From assembly GCA_050178035.1 (NCBI GenBank), contig JBFXGK010000010.1:36396-100395 (forward strand): a stretch of 64,000 nt of DNA. Reading direction: 5' to 3'. Within the stretch, counting starts at the first letter, position 1. Each line of letters starts with the position of its first letter. A program made the position numbers and the translations under genes. The notes beneath the pieces were generated by a model. It was not told where the DNA came from. It saw only the letters and a list, made by a program, of their open reading frames with translations, and made no database searches. Below, one piece after another: positions 8,513 through 33,659 of this stretch. This stretch comes from Kiritimatiellia bacterium (GTDB lineage Bacteria > Verrucomicrobiota > Kiritimatiellia > JAKQHR01).

Positions 8513-9586
8513 TTAAAGAAGCTTTTGGGAAATCTTCCACCAATAATAGTAGGCTTCCGGCGATCCGGCCCTCAGTTTGTTCAGCGGCGCATATTCGTTC
8601 TGCATTGGCGTCTTGACCATTTCCGGAAGCTCTTCGGGGTTATATCGGAGAAATGGTATCTTGTCATTTTCGAAGCCGATGGCGCTTGCAAGCCATGCCG
8701 CTTTTGCCGCGCAGGTTTTTGCTTCATCCCTTGAGAAATGCCGGCCGACAATATGGCTGTCCAGCTGGTGGACACCTGTTTCCAATGTCCGGACATTTTC
8801 CGATACGGGGCAACCTTTCAACCCGATCAGGCTGATCATACGGGCGGCCTCAATCGTGTCGTCGAGTATCTGCTCACGGCTAAAGGCGCTGTTCCGGTAT
8901 GAATTTTCCGCTTTCCAAATGTTTTCGTATGCGACGAGCAGCTCGCTCATGTTCCTGCAATGGTCAAACAGAATGCCGATATCTGCACAATGCTTGAGAA
9001 TTTTAAGTGCCGCACCCCTTGCTGAGTACCGAACCCCTATGGTTCCGGGCGCAAATGCCGTCAGTTTGTCGGCGGTCAGACATTCGATGGTCGGAATTTC
9101 CACATCAAACTGGTTTTCAGGAATGGCGAACGGAGCGGCAACCGGTTTGGTTATGGTTTTCGGATAAAGATTTGCCTCTTCCATCACATCCAGCAGAATG
9201 TCGGCGGTTTTGCCATTCACGGCCGAGGTGTAGCTGAATTTGTAGTGGGAGCGTTTCGGCAGGCGGTCCGGACCGCGCGGATCGGGTTCAAAGTTTTCAA
9301 ACCGGCTTTCTTCGCTGATGGCCCGCAGAACCGATTCCATTTCCGCGACCGGAACGGCGCAGACAATATCAACATCTATGGAAAGGCGGCGGATTTCTTC
9401 AAGAAGCAATACCATGCAGGTGCCGCCCTTGAATACAAATGGGAGTTTGCGCCTCACAAGATGGCCAACCAGTTCCAGTGCATAAATGCTCTTCTCCAGA
9501 AGGCCGGGATCAACCCGCCGCATGTGCTTGCGCTGTTCGGCCAGCCACTCTTTCGAAAAACATCTTTCCTGCAATGTATTCATCAT
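8513..9586 (-). CDS. AbiEii-family nucleotidyltransferase toxin (type IV TA); start at 9586, 9583 or 9604
   Basis: LLEKSIYAL, FVFKGGT, RRLSIDVD and DKLTAF motifs of AbiEii/DUF1814-type nucleotidyltransferases. Confidence 0.88.
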   Translation of the reverse strand: MMNTLQERCFSKEWLAEQRKHMRRVDPGLLEKSIYALELVGHLVRRKLPFVFKGGTCMVLLLEEIRRLSIDVDIVCAVPVAEMESVLRAISEESRFENFEPDPRGPDRLPKRSHYKFSYTSAVNGKTADILLDVMEEANLYPKTITKPVAAPFAIPENQFDVEIPTIECLTADKLTAFAPGTIGVRYSARGAALKILKHCADIGILFDHCRNMSELLVAYENIWKAENSYRNSAFSREQILDDTIEAARMISLIGLKGCPVSENVRTLETGVHQLDSHIVGRHFSRDEAKTCAAKAAWLASAIGFENDKIPFLRYNPEELPEMVKTPMQNEYAPLNKLRAGSPEAYYYWWKISQKLL

Positions 9587-9632
9587 TTCTTCCGGATAAT
9601 CCACTATCGGCGCTATTTTGAAAAAAGCGCCC

Positions 9633-11759
9633 TTAGTGGATTGTAATGCGATCTATCAGGCATGAAACATCCGTTTTTCTGCGGGATGAATATTTTATTA
9701 ACTCAGATATATCAATACGTTGCACTTCAATAAGCCTTGATGCGCCCTCTATAAATTCGGTAATATTTACGATAGAATATTCGTATAAATCCGCCAAAAC
9801 ATCCACCATGATCTTCTCCATCAGTGCAAAGCCGTCCCGATGCGGTGTTTTGGTGGAAATCGGCAAAACCACGGCTGTTTTCTCTTCAATGGAGAAAGTG
9901 TGCCGGATTTCCTGTTTGCCGGGATTGGCATAGACGCGATAGCCGAGATCTTTCAACCGGTCGGCGACGCTTTCGATGGCGTCGCGCTCAACATAGGCAA
10001 ACTGCACATGCTTGGCGATTTGGTGCCGCAGCATTTCGTTCAACTGTTCCGTGGACCAGCAGGCAAAGTCGAGCAGCGGGAAAGCTGTTTTCAGCTCGCT
10101 GACCAGTTTTTCGACCGGCGCGGTATCAAGCCGATAAGGTTTTGCAATGGAGGAATACCAGCCGTGCCCGGCATCAAATATTTTGCCTTCCTTCTTTTGG
10201 CGGCTGAGGTAGGTCTTCACCGTGTCCGGCTTGTAGCTCAGCTTTTGCTCGGCCAGCCAGCGGCGGACGGCATCAATGGAAAAATATGGAGCCTTCTGCG
10301 CCAGATCGTGCGTGATGACCTGTTCAACAAAACTTTTGCCGTCCAGATAGGCCATCGCCGCCGCTTCGCCTTTTTCAATCGCTATCTCAACCGCCTTCTT
10401 CGCCTTTTCCAGCAGACGGTGCGATGCTGCCTTCTTCTCCCTCGCTTCAAGAAGCCGGGCAACGATTTCCTGCTGCTTCTCCTTCGCAACGAAGGGGATT
10501 ACAAATTGCGAAATGTCTTTCGGATAAAGATGCGGCTGGGCGCATCCGCTTTTGAATTTTTCAGTTTGCAACCGGCCGATCAATGAATTCATTACGCAGG
10601 CAACATAGATTGGATCCTCTTTATCTGGCCGGATCGTCACAATGTCCTGGCAGGCCAATGCGCGTTCACTGGAAAGATAGGCTTGGGTGCGCCCCACGTT
10701 GGCCCCCGTCGAATACACAAGGATGTCGTTCTGCCGGACCTGCGCCAACTCATTCGTTTCCCAGCATTGCAGCGTGGTCTTGTCTAAATTTTCATAATCA
10801 ATATCGGTTTCTGTCAAATGCTTCTGGGTAATCATCTTGCAAGATCCCTGCTCGTCATATTGCGCGATACAGCCGCGTTCAATATATTCAGCGATCTCTC
10901 CGACCGTCTTCACGTATTCGGCGTTCTTGCGAATGCGCTTGAACAGCTCGTCAAACTTCGGCTGGTAAAACTCCGCATCCAGCCGCCCGCTCGCCGCAAA
11001 GGATTCGGAGAAGGATTTAACGGATGCGTTTTGTTGATGAACAGTTTCGGAATAATTAAGAGCCTCCAGCAAAACCAGCTGGGCAGCTTTGAATTCTGAT
11101 TCGCTGATTTCACGCTTCGCAACACCGTCCAAAAGCAGTTTGCCGATTTTGGTTTGAAGATCGTTTGAGAAGGCGGGAACGGCGATGTTTCCGCAGTCCT
11201 CGAGATTTAAGTGCATTTGAATGTTGCCGGTAAACCATCTGCGCAGCAGCAGCAACCCCTCGCGAGTGTTAAAATATGTCACAAGAAATTCGGAGCGGAT
11301 GCCGCAGTCCGGCTTCAGCTTCAATGCGACTGTATCCTGCGAAACGTTGCATTCGTCAACTGTTACAAGGGATGCGGCGGCACAGGCGGTCTTCGAGAGA
11401 ACAATATCGCCTTTACTCAGATGCGTTTTGTGGTTTTCCTGATCCACTTTCTCTGGGATGCAGACAAAGTCTCCCTGTATTTGCATGTTCCGAAGGTTGG
11501 AGATTCGCACAAAAGGAATTCCGGAATCAGAATAGACTGAAGCATTTACGTCGAAGATCCCTTTTCGAAGCATCTGGGCAATATCGCCAAGCAAAACGGT
11601 GGGGTGTTTTGCCAGTCGTCTTTCAATAGAAATGTACTGCCGTTCATAGACCTCCGCATCCAGCCGGTTTCCGCTTATCAACTCGGACATCCGAACTTCA
11701 CTGATCTCCAGCCCGCTCAACAAGGCCTTGTATTTGGCCTCATTGAACGGGCTTGTCAG
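9633..11759 (-). CDS. Two-TRD RM specificity subunit (HsdS-like) fused to a C-terminal AbiEi/DUF6577-like antitoxin domain; probably entered by -1 frameshift from the upstream gene (nominal TTG start at 11723)
   Basis: Duplicated RLDAE(V/F)Y + TRD + helix units (KGDIVLSK, QNDILVY, GCAQPHLYPKDI..IP); about 230-aa tail with wHTH-like TVKTYLSRQKKEGKIFDAGHGWY, FPLLDFACWST, MEKIMVD and LIKYSSRR. Confidence 0.85.
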   Translation of the reverse strand: MTSPFNEAKYKALLSGLEISEVRMSELISGNRLDAEVYERQYISIERRLAKHPTVLLGDIAQMLRKGIFDVNASVYSDSGIPFVRISNLRNMQIQGDFVCIPEKVDQENHKTHLSKGDIVLSKTACAAASLVTVDECNVSQDTVALKLKPDCGIRSEFLVTYFNTREGLLLLRRWFTGNIQMHLNLEDCGNIAVPAFSNDLQTKIGKLLLDGVAKREISESEFKAAQLVLLEALNYSETVHQQNASVKSFSESFAASGRLDAEFYQPKFDELFKRIRKNAEYVKTVGEIAEYIERGCIAQYDEQGSCKMITQKHLTETDIDYENLDKTTLQCWETNELAQVRQNDILVYSTGANVGRTQAYLSSERALACQDIVTIRPDKEDPIYVACVMNSLIGRLQTEKFKSGCAQPHLYPKDISQFVIPFVAKEKQQEIVARLLEAREKKAASHRLLEKAKKAVEIAIEKGEAAAMAYLDGKSFVEQVITHDLAQKAPYFSIDAVRRWLAEQKLSYKPDTVKTYLSRQKKEGKIFDAGHGWYSSIAKPYRLDTAPVEKLVSELKTAFPLLDFACWSTEQLNEMLRHQIAKHVQFAYVERDAIESVADRLKDLGYRVYANPGKQEIRHTFSIEEKTAVVLPISTKTPHRDGFALMEKIMVDVLADLYEYSIVNITEFIEGASRLIEVQRIDISELIKYSSRRKTDVSCLIDRITIH

Positions 11760-11780
11760 AAAAAAGGGAGTTTTTCCTTC
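11710..11780 (-). promoter_or_regulatory. Candidate -1 programmed ribosomal frameshift signal
   Basis: mRNA GAAGGAAAAACUCCC-U_UUU_UUC-UGACA-[AGCCCGUUCAAUGAGGCC AAAUACAA GGCCUUGUUGAGCGGGCU]; 18-bp stem with 3 G-U pairs. Confidence 0.75.
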
Positions 11781-13837
11781 TTGGCGAATTCGATGAAGGC
11801 TTCGGCGATGCCGTCGCCGGTCAGCCCGTCGTGGTTGAACAGGTCGTGATCCACAAAGAGGTGGCCGTGGCTGTCGAGTTCGTATTCATCAAGGAATTCC
11901 GGGACGGTGTTGTATTTGTCGGGGGTTTCCCCAACGGCTGGAATCATGCCGGTTTTCGTCTCGATCGGCTGGAATTCGGGATTGCGCTTGCGGACGTAGA
12001 TTTTTTCGCCGGAGTTGTCTTTGCCGGGCTTCTGCATCGTGGCAAAGAAGATGTTGTAGTCGGCCGTTTTGGGGCAGAGCGGCCCGGCTTTCGGATCGTC
12101 GTTCCATTTCTGGACAAACAGCACGGAAGTTTTGGTTCCGGTGTGGGGCTTGAAGGTGTTCTGGTGCAGCCCGACCACGGCCAGGATGCGGCAGCGTTCG
12201 GCGATGAAGTCGCGGATCTGTTTGTCGCTGGCGTTGTTGAAGCGGCCCTGCGGCAGGACAATCGCCATGCGTCCGCCGGGGCGCAGGAAATCGAGGTTGC
12301 GCTCAATAAAAAGAATGTCGCGTCCGACATTGGTGCGCCATTTTCCGTTGGCGTTTTTGCCGAGTTCATAACAGGTGATGATCTGGCCGTCCTTGATATC
12401 CCCCGCAAAGGGCGGATTCGCCATCAGGAGGTCGAAGTTGTATTCCTTGTTCCCTTCTTTTTTCCGCCGGAGTTTTTTCAGGCGCTTAAAGCCTTCGTTG
12501 AAGGTGTCGAGCCATTCCTCCTGCCGGGTCGTTTCATCCCAGCGCTTGTAATCGAGCGTATTGAGATGCAGCACGTTGGTCTGACCGTCACCGGCAATCA
12601 GATTCAGCGTGCGGGCGACCCGGACGGCCTTTTCATCGAAATCAATGGCGAAGACCTTGTCCTGCACATACTTCTCGCACTCCACCGGTTTCTGTTCGAT
12701 GGTGAACAGATGGCTGGCATGGATTCCTTTTTCTTCCAGGATCTGCTTCCAGACGTGGAATATTCCGTGAACCGTGAATCCCGAAGAACCCGCCGCCGTA
12801 TCAATCATAGTTTCATGCGCCTGGGGGTTGAGCATCTTTACGCACATATCAATGACGTAGCGCGGAGTAAAATACTGCCCCTTTTCGCCTTTGCTGCTTT
12901 TGCTCATCAGATATTCAAACGCTTCGTCCACCACTTCGAGGTTCGAGTTGAAGAGCTTGACGTCCTGAAGCGATGAAACACAAATGCCCAGATGGGACGG
13001 GCTCAACTGTATACGTGTGGATTCTTCAAAAACGCCCTGCCATTGTTCACGGGCGCTGGAAAAAAGGTTCTGGATTTTCTGATTGAGCGCGGTTTCGGTC
13101 TGTCCGGTATTGCGAAATTCGAGAAAGCGCTTCCGGTCGCGGCCCGACAGCCATTCATCGTAGAGCTTGGTGAAGATCAGCTTGAAAACCTCCTCAAAAA
13201 CATCAACGCCCGCATGGGCAAGCACCTCATCTTCCATGTCCTGAATGAGATCTTTGAGAGACTTCCTCTCGGTAATCAGTTTATCTTTTTCAATCAGATC
13301 GGCGATCGTGAAACGCTCCTGCAAAATATCCGCCAGCGTTTCCGAAGCCATCGGGATGTGCGTGAGATCAAAGAAGTGGTTCGGATCGCGGCGGTTCCAA
13401 TAAGAAATGCTTTCTCCGTTGGTCCATATCGCGATGGGGGCTCCGGTCGCATGGCAGTAGGACTTGAGCTGTTCTTTTCCGGTGCTCCATTTTGGAGACT
13501 TGATCTCCACAATCATATAAACCGAGGTGGGCTTGTCTTTGTCAAAGACAACAATATCCGCGCGTTTAACCTCTCTCCCAAAATGAACGGGATGCTCCAC
13601 CTGAATGCGTTCAAGCGGATATTGGTAGCGATCCATCAATACACGCAAATAGAGCTGACGAACCACTTCTTCGGGCGTCAATCGTATCTGCTTGTTTCGA
13701 ATGCGGCAGGGAACATACAATCCTTCACCCTTCGCCGTCTTCTTGCGGGTAACCTCACTCTCCAGATCACGAATATCCTCTTCGTTGAACTGTGACAGCT
13801 TATAGTTCGAGTTGTGCAGGATTTCTATAATTTTCAT
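11756..13837 (-). CDS. Fused endonuclease (HsdR N-terminal type) + N6-adenine DNA methyltransferase (type IIB/IIG-like RM subunit)
   Basis: TPEEVVRQ, RADIVVF..VEIK (PD-(D/E)xK); GQYFTPR; DTAAGSSGF; ANPPF. Confidence 0.93.
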   Translation of the reverse strand: MKIIEILHNSNYKLSQFNEEDIRDLESEVTRKKTAKGEGLYVPCRIRNKQIRLTPEEVVRQLYLRVLMDRYQYPLERIQVEHPVHFGREVKRADIVVFDKDKPTSVYMIVEIKSPKWSTGKEQLKSYCHATGAPIAIWTNGESISYWNRRDPNHFFDLTHIPMASETLADILQERFTIADLIEKDKLITERKSLKDLIQDMEDEVLAHAGVDVFEEVFKLIFTKLYDEWLSGRDRKRFLEFRNTGQTETALNQKIQNLFSSAREQWQGVFEESTRIQLSPSHLGICVSSLQDVKLFNSNLEVVDEAFEYLMSKSSKGEKGQYFTPRYVIDMCVKMLNPQAHETMIDTAAGSSGFTVHGIFHVWKQILEEKGIHASHLFTIEQKPVECEKYVQDKVFAIDFDEKAVRVARTLNLIAGDGQTNVLHLNTLDYKRWDETTRQEEWLDTFNEGFKRLKKLRRKKEGNKEYNFDLLMANPPFAGDIKDGQIITCYELGKNANGKWRTNVGRDILFIERNLDFLRPGGRMAIVLPQGRFNNASDKQIRDFIAERCRILAVVGLHQNTFKPHTGTKTSVLFVQKWNDDPKAGPLCPKTADYNIFFATMQKPGKDNSGEKIYVRKRNPEFQPIETKTGMIPAVGETPDKYNTVPEFLDEYELDSHGHLFVDHDLFNHDGLTGDGIAEAFIEFAKKEKLPFF

Positions 13838-13867
13838 TTTTCCTCTGAACTTGATTATTTCGGACTA

Positions 13868-13891
13868 TGCCAAACTGTTGACCATTTGGCA
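13868..13891. promoter_or_regulatory. Inverted repeat overlapping the putative RM-operon promoter
   Basis: TGCCAAA-N10-TTTGGCA; minus strand reads TTGCCA-17-CATAGT. Confidence 0.45.
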
Positions 13892-14062
13892 ACCGAAGCA
13901 GTCGTTTATGTCAAATGGAATAGAGAAAGGATGCTGTTTGGCCCGTGAACGGAAAGCCCCCTCTGGCGATCAGCTCTAATCGTCGCAGCATCCATCCGGC
14001 GTTCAAATTCAAAACATAACGCCTGATGTTTCATCGTTATATTTGTCGGGAAATAGGTGTAT

Positions 14063-14160
14063 GGGCTATTTTGACGTTTTTTGGGCATTTTTGGCCAATT
14101 TTGAGCGTTTTTGAGCATTTTTTGACGTTTTTTGGCCATTTATTAGCGCTTTTTGACGCT
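14063..14160. repeat. Phased T-tract array B (about 9 tracts)
   Basis: T-tracts end at 14072, 14082, 14092, 14102, 14112, 14123, 14133, 14144 and 14154. Confidence 0.9.
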
Positions 14161-14202
14161 TGGGAGACCCTTTCGCGACGTAAAGAATCGGAGGTCATAT
14201 TG

Positions 14203-14230
14203 TTGACAAAGAGCCCTAAATACGTACTAT
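14203..14230 (+). promoter_or_regulatory. Sigma70-type promoter of tRNA-Phe
   Basis: TTGACA-16 bp-TACTAT, 30 bp upstream of the tRNA. Confidence 0.7.
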
Positions 14231-14260
14231 GCCGAGACTGCTGGAAACCAAGAATCTGGT

Positions 14261-14336
<76 letters not shown>

Positions 14337-14366
14337 TTTTTCTTTCCGTTTATTAAGGGACCACGA

Positions 14367-14750
14367 ATGAACACGAATATGCACGAATTACTATTGAAGG
14401 ATGAGGTGTTCGCGGTGACGGGGTGCGCCATGGAAGTGCTCAATGGGCTGGGACATGGACTGCTTGAAAAGCCTTATGAAAATGCCCTGGTGGTAGAGTT
14501 TGGCTTGAATAATATTCCTTTCAAACAGCAGCCACGCTTCGAGGTTCAGTACAAGGGCGTCTCGGTTGGAGAATATATTCCGGATCTGATTACACACGGG
14601 CAATTGGTGGTGGACGCCAAAGTCATCGAAAAGATTACGGACCATGAAATAGGTCAGATGATGAATTACCTAAAGATTACCGGATTGAGAGTCGGACTGA
14701 TTCTGAATTTCAAACGCGCCAAATTAGAGTGGAAACGGATTGTTCTGTAA
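14367..14750 (+). CDS. GxxExxY protein (start at 14367 or 14379)
   Basis: LGHGLLEKPYENAL; QMMNYLKITGLRVGLILNF. Confidence 0.93.
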   Translation: MNTNMHELLLKDEVFAVTGCAMEVLNGLGHGLLEKPYENALVVEFGLNNIPFKQQPRFEVQYKGVSVGEYIPDLITHGQLVVDAKVIEKITDHEIGQMMNYLKITGLRVGLILNFKRAKLEWKRIVL

Positions 14751-33555: not shown

Positions 33556-33574
33556 ACAGCGGCCGCGACAAAAT

Positions 33575-33659
33575 AGTTCCAGCCATTGGAAGTTTTCCCG
33601 AAAAAAGTTCCAATGATTGGAACTTTTTAATAGGATTCTTCCAACCATTGGAACTTTTT
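33575..33659. repeat. Three TTCCA-N3-ATTGGAA quasi-palindromes in the pheS leader
   Basis: TTCCAGCCATTGGAA, AAAAAGTTCCAATGATTGGAACTTTTT and TTCCAACCATTGGAA. Confidence 0.85.

Follow-up and report, generated by a model that had tools for sequence, protein, structure and literature searches.

A predicted -1 ribosomal frameshift cassette joining the methylase-nuclease and specificity genes of a Type IIB-like restriction family

To our knowledge, few cellular bacterial genes, as opposed to genes of phages or insertion sequences (IS), are known to use programmed -1 ribosomal frameshifting, the tau/gamma frameshift of Escherichia coli dnaX being one such case. A review of the field (PMC5009743), as far as its available text goes, conveys the same. 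The efficiency of slippery heptamers has been measured in E. coli, where V_VV.A_AA.R and H_HH.U_UU.Y formed the high-efficiency classes and G_GG.A_AA.G ranked among the top three, and the same source gives both G_GG.A_AA.G and U_UU.U_UU.C as heptamers used by IS elements (PMC4066793). Among restriction enzymes, BsaXI, the closest solved relative of the enzyme discussed here, is an (RM)2S heterotrimer according to cryo-electron microscopy and size-exclusion chromatography (PMC11997821), RM being the restriction-modification (methylase-nuclease) subunit and S the specificity subunit. For EcoKI, an engineered fusion of the methylase (M) to S restricts in vivo, its cleavage activity in vitro needs added free M, and the authors concluded that the active enzyme is made of one M and one M-S fusion (PMC3510504). 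Here, a junction between an RM gene and an S gene is described from a stretch of 64,000 nucleotides of a Kiritimatiellia bacterium (the window, i.e., the whole stretch that was analysed; GenBank assembly GCA_050178035.1, contig JBFXGK010000010.1, positions 36,396 to 100,395 of the forward strand). From its sequence and that of its relatives, the junction is read as a programmed -1 ribosomal frameshift cassette, with a probability of about 0.8. A first-pass annotation of the window had proposed that frameshifting yields both RM and an RM-S fusion, an interpretation that the comparative data support. Its further argument, that a pair of RM and RM-S would reproduce the (RM)2S stoichiometry, fits the BsaXI and EcoKI results.

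The RM/S junction in the window and in related loci

On the minus strand of the window, the RM gene ends with AAG AAG GAA AAA CTC CCT TTT TTC TGA. A slippery heptamer, a second one that overlaps it, a Shine-Dalgarno (SD)-like element, a spacer and a hairpin are all found within this short region (Table 1), and each detail of this layout, as set out in the first-pass annotation, proved right when the coordinates were re-derived. Re-reading the sequence likewise bore out that the S frame is exactly -1 relative to RM, open across the junction (from 11888 onwards), and that its nominal TTG start is inside the hairpin; the next ATG after this TTG lies at 11690-11688. The predicted transframe product comprises 693 + 708 = 1401 amino acids (aa), and the sizes put forward earlier, 693 aa for RM and about 1401 aa for RM-S, were recovered by re-derivation. 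The hairpin encodes SPFNEAKYKALLSGL in the -1 frame. RNAfold recovers the 18-bp stem, the 101-nucleotide (nt) stretch around it folding at -42.8 kcal/mol; shuffles of this stretch have a mean of -25.1 with a standard deviation of 3.5 (z = -5.04), and none of 200 folds as well. The SD-like AAGGA is a possible 5′ stimulator, and the TTG a possible minor independent start of S.

The run of six T in the heptamer is not an assembly error. The region 11500-12100 is identical, without an indel, in a Logan contig of the likely source run, where the word depth is about 70. A relative in another study is represented by a 237-nt contig, which covers 11706-11863, differs by nine substitutions and has no indel at the T-run, and the same CCC TTT TTT C TGA is present in L001, an independent Kiritimatiellae metagenome-assembled genome (MAG) whose RM is 90% identical. 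The choice between T6 and T7, on which the first-pass annotation had made its proposal depend, thus came out as T6: no T7 is seen in L001 or in the two contigs, the latter being assemblies that drop rare variants. Of the sequencing runs listed for this stretch none is recorded as RNA, and runs X22 and X23 do not extend over it.

A protein search returned at least 8000 scored relatives, which suggests that the family is large. Among the best 120 relatives there are two length classes, of about 660-730 aa and about 1110-1200 aa, and the longer class also has Methylase_S. The best 80 of 591 confirmed genomic relatives (62-90% identical) were combined with the window into a set of 81 loci, which spans at least 10 phyla and contains both isolates and MAGs; the phyla include Cyanobacteriota, Bacteroidota, Pseudomonadota, Bacillota, Spirochaetota, Acidobacteriota, Ignavibacteriota, Thermodesulfobacteriota and Kiritimatiellota. 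Members of the family are found in Nostoc, Picosynechococcus PCC 7002, Flavobacterium, Neisseria and Treponema, and in elements of E. coli and Klebsiella. In the first scoring of the junctions, 54 split and 14 fused loci of the 81 were covered (without L007-9, L019, L021, L024, L033, L042, L057, L062 and L067, and without L006 and L015, which run off their contigs); the tally of heptamers was later redone over all 81.

An in-phase X_XXY_YYZ heptamer lies at the RM/S junction in 79 of the 81 loci. RM and S are split in 58 of them, with G_GGA_AAG in 24, U_UUU_UUU in 23, U_UUU_UUC in nine and no heptamer in two (L032 and L035). In every one of the 56 heptamer-bearing split loci the 0-frame stop comes 0 or 3 nt past the heptamer, and the -1 frame is 460-725 codons long in 49 of them and 115-427 in the other seven. 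The S frame of L011, L029, L058 and L078 is short only because the fetched DNA ends, and these are not truncations. In L061, L073 and L076 the -1 S frame stops early (at 220, 200 and 115 codons) though heptamer and hairpin are kept; these may be decaying copies or shuffled S genes, and the gene of L076, with an S frame of only 112-115 codons, may be decayed.

The other 23 loci, which fall within L002-L067, have RM and S fused in a single frame. All 23 carry U_UUU_UUU, written as AGT TTT TTT followed by GAN or AAR, and in all 23 the first -1 codon after a slip is UGA or UAA; the hairpin is kept as well. A -1 shift in a fused gene would therefore lead to a protein ending in ...SFF, the same C-terminus as that of the 0 frame of the split genes. 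Split and fused layouts specify one and the same pair of products, only with the frames exchanged, and would therefore be functionally equivalent if recoding takes place. The ordinary-looking fused open reading frame (ORF) of cyanobacteria, of about 1180 aa, would then probably also yield a truncated RM ending in ...SFF. Homologues were the test that the first-pass annotation had chosen for its proposal, and the outcome was in its favour: to the 56 of 58 split loci with the in-phase heptamer and the 23 of 23 fused genes with heptamer and -1 stop can be added a hairpin at a spacer of about 5 nt, confirmed in 52 scored -1 loci.

The same cassette is found on plasmids. On plasmid pAQ6 of Picosynechococcus PCC 7002 (L084, 5020-5100) there is a fused gene of 1179 aa with AGT TTT TTT GAA; a conjugative Klebsiella plasmid (L085, 4950-5010) has split genes with AGT TTT TTT CGG, the 0-frame stop lying 27 nt past the heptamer, within the hairpin. 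Of 5426 complete E. coli genomes, 3 also have the cassette on the chromosome, 99.9% identical to the Klebsiella version (H11-H13). As a contrast case, a distant relative on Trichormus plasmid D (39% identity; RM of 917 aa, BsaXI-sized) has GGAGG with an overlapping TGATG and neither heptamer nor hairpin (n = 1). The cassette may thus be specific to a subfamily, since this relative uses ordinary coupling.

Nucleotide-level selection and covariation of the hairpin

The codon preceding the T-run was compared in 28 split loci, where it is AGT in 24, CCT in two, GGT in one and CAT in one, i.e., the residue varies between Ser, Pro, Gly and His and the third base is T in all. This constancy is explained by the X position of the heptamer, which requires a T. 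In 20 scored GGGAAAG loci the same codons, here outside the heptamer, vary freely between synonymous and other forms: Ser is encoded by TCT, TCA, TCC or TCG, and the next codon is TTT, TTC, TTG or TTA. Selection at the junction is acting on nucleotides and not on amino acids alone. A maximum-likelihood tree of RM was built from 73 of the 81 rows (without L007-9, L024, L033, L042, L062 and L067). The fused genes form one clade in it (SH-aLRT, an approximate likelihood-ratio support, of 98) and the heptamer classes are interleaved, well-supported branches forcing at least four changes for GGGAAAG, at least six for T7-8 and at least six for T6C. All three heptamers of the family belong to the high-efficiency classes measured in E. 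coli (PMC4066793). An SD-like core (GGAG, AGGA or GAGG) is found 4-20 nt 5′ of 41 of 50 T-run heptamers, at 9 nt in 40 and at 7 nt in one; it can be regarded as suggestive only, since it overlaps conserved Lys-Glu codons.

The hairpin was analysed for covariation in 50 split loci with standard spacing, over 18 pairs; L004, L027, L065 and L073 were left out for the 12 nt inserted in their hairpin. The stem starts 5 nt past the heptamer in all 50, and 90.3% of the 900 cells are standard pairs, compared with 30.8-61.0% for a 3′ partner displaced by 1-3 columns. Changes on both sides of a pair account for 57 cells (shuffled mean 16.1), and the covariation score is 0.301 (0.183 in shuffles); in neither measure does any of 500 shuffles reach the observed value. 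Pair 46-79 alone occurs as UA in 32 loci, CG in eight, GC in seven, UG in two and AU in one, i.e., in all four Watson-Crick types with no unpaired cell. The upper stem varies by paired amino-acid replacements (AKYKA, ARYRG, THYKE, TRYRE), with complementarity kept. In the four loci set aside, and in the fused genes, the 12-nt insertion leads to a longer hairpin on the same base, AGCCCNTC/GANGGGCT. For 20 of 22 fused junctions (without L014 and L015), RNAalifold gave a 13-bp outer stem that begins 6 nt past the heptamer and has three doubly changed pairs. An in-phase heptamer, a stable 3′ structure 5-9 nt past it, a -1 frame that either encodes a conserved domain with no start ahead of its conserved residues or yields a defined truncation, and conservation across homologues, by which a frameshift cassette is recognized, are all found in this family.

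Signs that the S frame is translated ahead of its first start can be sought in the peptide that it encodes. By BLASTP, LTSPFNEAKYKALLSGLEISEV of the window's -1 frame aligns with an internal part, ...SFFESSPSVTPFDAVKYQQLMDGLEAVEI, of two long fused homologues. What lies between the RM stop and the first start codon therefore has its homologue in sequence that codes for protein beyond doubt. In 50 loci, the codons 5′ of the first start encode Pro in 50 (with all four codons), Phe in 50 (TTT in 27, TTC in 23) and, at position +2, Asn or Asp. The Tyr of the loop, which is unpaired, is present in 49 of the 50 (TAT in 29, TAC in 20) and, as the sole residue free of the pairing constraint, would be the cleanest sign of translation. 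In three of the 54 scored split loci there is no nearby start at all, the first being at +87 in L060 ([Haemophilus] felis), at +46 in L075 and at +115 in L076. Independent starts of S with an SD element and ATG, which the first-pass annotation had named as a finding that would speak against it, turned out not to be the rule in the family, where the usual sole canonical start is the TTG within the stem.

Other identities for the hairpin were also considered. A scan of 9000-14600 for terminators and promoters did not flag it and gave as many sites as shuffles do, and an intrinsic terminator or attenuator was rejected for the reason that no U-run follows the stem. No Rfam 15 family reaches its threshold within 11500-12000; the sole match there is a family of long non-coding RNA, at 14.2 bits compared with a gathering score of 45. 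The hairpin is absent among 25 of 26 pairs shown by an inverted-repeat finder, which is uninformative here because it does not count G-U pairs. R1, a covariance model of the 50 aligned loci, was run over the window's own genome, where it matched the junction with an E-value of 1.5e-15 and gave one further weak match of 30.8 bits, which is an unrelated intergenic palindrome and was taken as chance. A repetitive extragenic palindromic (REP)-like repeat was likewise rejected, the junction being the sole strong R1 match in the genome. A repeated intergenic palindrome with the core GTTCCAATNATTGGAAC is located at 33571-33659 of the window and at C4:78168-78254 of its own genome (L088, 1501-1587), clustered at two or more places in the genome; it may be the binding site of a regulator or a REP-like element.

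Proposed expression of RM and RM-S and its alternatives

In the proposed mechanism, ribosomes translating RM would be held at U_UUU_UUC by the hairpin 5 nt downstream, and the SD-like AAGGA may contribute to the slip. Some ribosomes would stop at the adjacent UGA and release RM; in others both Phe-tRNAs would re-pair one base back, so that translation would pass through ...KLPFF-LTSPFNEAKYKALLSGLE... into S, the slipped product in this locus being RM-S-AbiEi. One free RM together with one RM-S, both from a single mRNA, would add up to the (RM)2S of which Type IIB enzymes are composed. The 0 frame of the split layout would give RM and the -1 frame RM-S, an arrangement like that of IS3. In the fused layout of the cyanobacterial genes the 0 frame would give RM-S, and the -1 frame would meet an immediate stop and give RM ending in ...SFF, an arrangement like that of dnaX. 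Efficient frameshifting, as in dnaX, would be called for, since RM and RM-S would be needed in roughly equal amounts. The wider proposal is given slightly better than even odds: that a very large Type IIB-like family sets its subunit ratio by efficient -1 recoding, comparable amounts of RM and RM-S pairing as an (RM)(RM-S) enzyme; that the two mirror layouts, one spacer base apart, are interconvertible without loss of a product; that this would be the first recoding in bacterial immunity; and that in this locus, where AbiEi is tethered, the level of frameshifting would link restriction to an abortive-infection toxin.

Several points weigh against the frameshift cassette. While the heptamers, their phase and spacing, their conservation and the covariation are observed, frameshifting itself, its efficiency and its stoichiometric purpose are what we infer from them. 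All 80 loci are at least 62% identical and belong to one family, and are thus not independent samples. Two Bacteroidales MAGs, L032 (5560-5600) and L035 (5563-5603), have a run of only five T (T5), which puts S in the +1 frame; their hairpin is intact and no heptamer is in phase. They may be one-base deletion variants of the T6C form, assembly errors, or cases of a +1 shift on UUU_U. The SD-like core overlaps conserved Lys-Lys-Glu codons and is found in only five of 20 GGGAAAG loci. Part of the peptide conservation 5′ of the TTG could be at the RNA level, because the 5′ arm of the stem pairs with the conserved coding 3′ arm. An AlphaFold2 model of a natural fused homologue (17-row alignment; mean pLDDT, the predicted local confidence, 52; pTM, the predicted template-modelling score, 0.31) is too poor to assign a role to the junction peptide, which appears as a coil followed by a long helix from the PFD motif with a local pLDDT below 50. 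The remaining points of this kind concern the start codons of S and the length of the T-runs, each of which leads to an explanation of its own.

The start codons would suit an ordinary two-gene operon, in which S begins at the TTG or ATG in the hairpin, unmasked by a ribosome terminating at the RM stop as in EcoKI hsdM/hsdS, and the heptamer has no role. EcoKI M and S are indeed translationally coupled (PMC3510504), and so is the Trichormus plasmid D relative by its SD element and overlapping stop and start. Counted from the conserved Pro, the S frame reaches its first ATG, GTG or TTG at codon +9 or +10 in 46 of the 54 scored split loci, in the form of TTG or ATG; TTG is preferred over TTA beyond what pairing needs (22 U-G to 9 U-A at one pair); the PGAP annotation of the Klebsiella plasmid starts S at the neighbouring TTG, the second Leu of the LL pair; and a ribosome that terminates at the RM stop, 0-3 nt past the heptamer and about 5 nt short of the stem, would open the latter. 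Since this start is common and TTG is over-used, independent or re-initiated synthesis of S is possible, and coupled re-initiation could be a minor additional source of S. As the explanation of the junction, however, coupling is improbable. It does not account for three heptamers that interchange repeatedly and hold their phase in 56 of 58 split loci, for a third-base T that is fixed while the residue varies, or for the 23 fused genes, which need no coupling and still keep the heptamer, the hairpin and the immediate -1 stop. The conserved Pro, Phe and loop Tyr 5′ of the TTG, with their synonymous changes, and the three loci that have no nearby start are left unexplained as well.

The T-runs raise the possibility of a switch by phase variation or transcriptional slippage, where one T added in the DNA or the mRNA would fuse RM to S and the hairpin would be unrelated. 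There are well-known cases of phase-variable RM genes with homopolymer tracts (PMC3711429), UUUUUUU is prone to slippage and indels (PMC4066793), one added T gives a single frame in every T-run class, and L032 and L035 resemble variants that have lost one T. It also counts against frameshifting that the U7 or U8 runs of 46 of the 81 loci could support transcriptional slippage or mutational switching. Such a switch is nevertheless even less probable than coupling. The long tract of varying length that marks phase variation is not seen: the window has T6 only, the two T-run contigs contain no length variant, though contigs drop rare variants, and 24 split relatives have GGGAAAG, no repeat tract, and yet share the spacer and the hairpin. 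Slippage would not require the 0-frame phase, which the heptamer keeps in every case. Ribosomal frameshifting predicts a covarying hairpin just where one is seen, 5-6 nt 3′ of the site, and neither DNA slippage nor slippage of RNA polymerase is known to need one. That the split is a plain defect, whether from faulty sequencing or assembly or from a recent frameshift that inactivated a gene meant to be fused, was suggested by the existence of fused homologues of about 1150-1200 aa and by the one T that would join the frames, and can be set aside almost entirely. The second assembly is identical at a word depth of about 70, the T6C form is common to L001 and eight other loci, and the split affects 58 of the 81 relatives, at one and the same codon throughout, most of them with a long -1 S frame.

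Genes of the locus and comparison with known systems

The coordinates of the junction elements and of the genes on either side of it are collected in Table 1.

Table 1. Elements and genes of the RM-S locus, in positions of the window
Feature	Position	Strand	Description
RM gene	11756..13837	(-)	693 aa; 0-frame product with C-terminus ...KEKLPFF
SD-like AAGGA	11775..11779	(-)	9 nt between AAGGA and the heptamer
C_CCU_UUU	11762-11768	(-)	overlaps U_UUU_UUC, also in phase
Slippery heptamer U_UUU_UUC	11759..11765	(-)	in 0-frame phase
Spacer UGACA	11754..11758	(-)	5 nt; first three bases are the 0-frame stop UGA
Hairpin	11710..11753	(-)	18 bp, 8-nt loop, three G-U pairs; arms 11753-11736 / 11727-11710; proposed 3′ frameshift stimulator
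TTG, first canonical start of the S frame	11721..11723	(-)	within the 3′ arm of the hairpin; first Leu codon of the conserved LL(E/S)GLE
S continuation in the -1 frame	9633..11759	(-)	708 codons + stop; LTS linker, conserved S N-terminal peptide, two target-recognition domains, C-terminal AbiEi-like domain
AbiEi antitoxin-like domain (Pfam DUF6577), C-terminus of S	9669..10307	(-)	DUF6577 E 3e-32; PADLOC AbiEi PDLC02235 E 7e-32, profile positions 10-227 of 240
AbiEii nucleotidyltransferase toxin gene	8513..9604	(-)	directly downstream of S-AbiEi; PF08843 E 2.5e-16; PADLOC AbiEii PDLC02299 E 3e-94

RM consists of an N-terminal PD-(D/E)xK-type nuclease (HSDR_N_2, residues 55-162) followed by a gamma-class N6-adenine (N6A) methyltransferase (N6_Mtase/Eco57I, 301-608), with Pfam E-values of 4e-29, 1e-27 and 2e-11 and a score of 1080 bits to the PADLOC profile MTase_I PDLC03034. 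Its translation contains the D...E-x-K and NPPF motifs. Its best relative in the PDB is RM.BsaXI (8w0p; E 4e-20), with which only the methyltransferase core is shared (query residues 299-579). The S frame has Methylase_S in two stretches (Pfam) and matches PADLOC Specificity_I over residues 7-451 (E 2e-41). Domain searches thus found both a pair of target-recognition domains (TRDs) and the combination of nuclease and N6A methyltransferase that characterize Type IIB (BcgI/BsaXI-like) enzymes. An identity with MAD2 and MAD5 of the MADS system was rejected, the scores being 320 bits against an NCBIfam cut-off of 720 for MAD2 and 131.5 against 400 for MAD5.

Both members of an AbiE type IV toxin-antitoxin pair are present, the antitoxin here being a domain of S with no separate gene. 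A restriction enzyme that is covalently joined to a type IV antitoxin is unusual, and no discussion of one was found. The S-DUF6577 fusion is also seen in the independent MAG L001. A 22-nt inverted repeat at 9598-9642 of the window (86% complementary, arms 1 nt apart) spans the stop of S-AbiEi and the start of AbiEii, and could serve the AbiEi domain as an operator or act as another element of translational control. The RM-S block (9633-13837) has a G+C content of 50-52%, compared with 57.5% for the whole window, is single-copy in the 2.96-Mb genome, and encodes an RM that is 68-70% identical to proteins of unrelated phyla. The low G+C and the identity across phyla are consistent with horizontal spread of the whole cassette.

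If the frameshift cassette is real, a large new class of recoded genes would be at hand, and the 2:1 ratio of the subunits would be explained from one mRNA. The family would also be systematically mis-annotated, RM being labelled "N-6 DNA methylase" or "type I M" and S being given, in RefSeq, a TTG start inside the hairpin. There would be consequences for the way in which recognition subunits are swapped and Type IIB enzymes engineered. Tests are within easy reach, as some E. coli genomes and the model cyanobacterium PCC 7002 carry the cassette. In agreement with the statement of the first-pass annotation that no characterised recoded restriction-modification system was known, none was found described in the literature that was searched, which did not extend to subscription journals, REBASE notes and supplements, among them the cluster lists in which PMC3711429 and PMC4066793 might name the family. 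In the available text of PMC3850674, a frameshift leading to a fusion of a C protein with a restriction endonuclease was considered and no such product was seen.

Among described systems, the junction resembles E. coli dnaX in its in-phase heptamer, in an SD-like element about 10 nt upstream and in a hairpin 5-6 nt downstream. The fused RM-S genes go further in this likeness, as an immediate -1 stop would give a shorter product without the C-terminal part, and two products of one gene would enter one complex. The heptamer of dnaX is A_AAA_AAG, however, in place of U_UUU_UUY or G_GGA_AAG; dnaX encodes a replication factor and not a defence enzyme; and in the split layout of the window a shift would lengthen the protein. 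With the OrfA/OrfAB genes of IS3 and IS911 the junction shares overlapping ORFs, of which the second is in the -1 frame without a start of its own, a 3′ structure, and a functional fusion as the predicted outcome. The product there is a transposase, whereas here it is encoded by a defence gene of a chromosome, plasmid or island, with a simple hairpin of 16-19 bp that encodes a conserved peptide. The heptamers of the IS3/IS911 elements include G_GGA_AAG and U_UUU_UUC (PMC4066793).

In EcoKI hsdM-hsdS, as here, the C-terminus of the methylase abuts the N-terminus of S, the frames are one base apart, and M with M-S amounts to M2S; the EcoKI genes, in contrast, share 1 nt and are translationally coupled through a genuine start codon, and the fusion was made by mutagenesis and not by recoding (PMC3510504). 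BcgI and BsaXI have the same RM architecture, an N-terminal PD-(D/E)xK nuclease with an N6A methyltransferase, and an S with two TRDs (PMC11997821 for BsaXI). The RM of BsaXI differs in its 916 aa and in that the methyltransferase core alone matches, and the available text of PMC11997821 mentions no frameshift. Phase-variable RM genes likewise have a nucleotide run at which the making of a functional enzyme hinges on the frame, but the run in this family is short (T6), is always in slippery phase, is accompanied by a covarying hairpin, and is replaced by GGGAAAG in 24 relatives. The class of mechanism is thus a known one; its use in a defence enzyme, and the two mirrored layouts, appear to be new.

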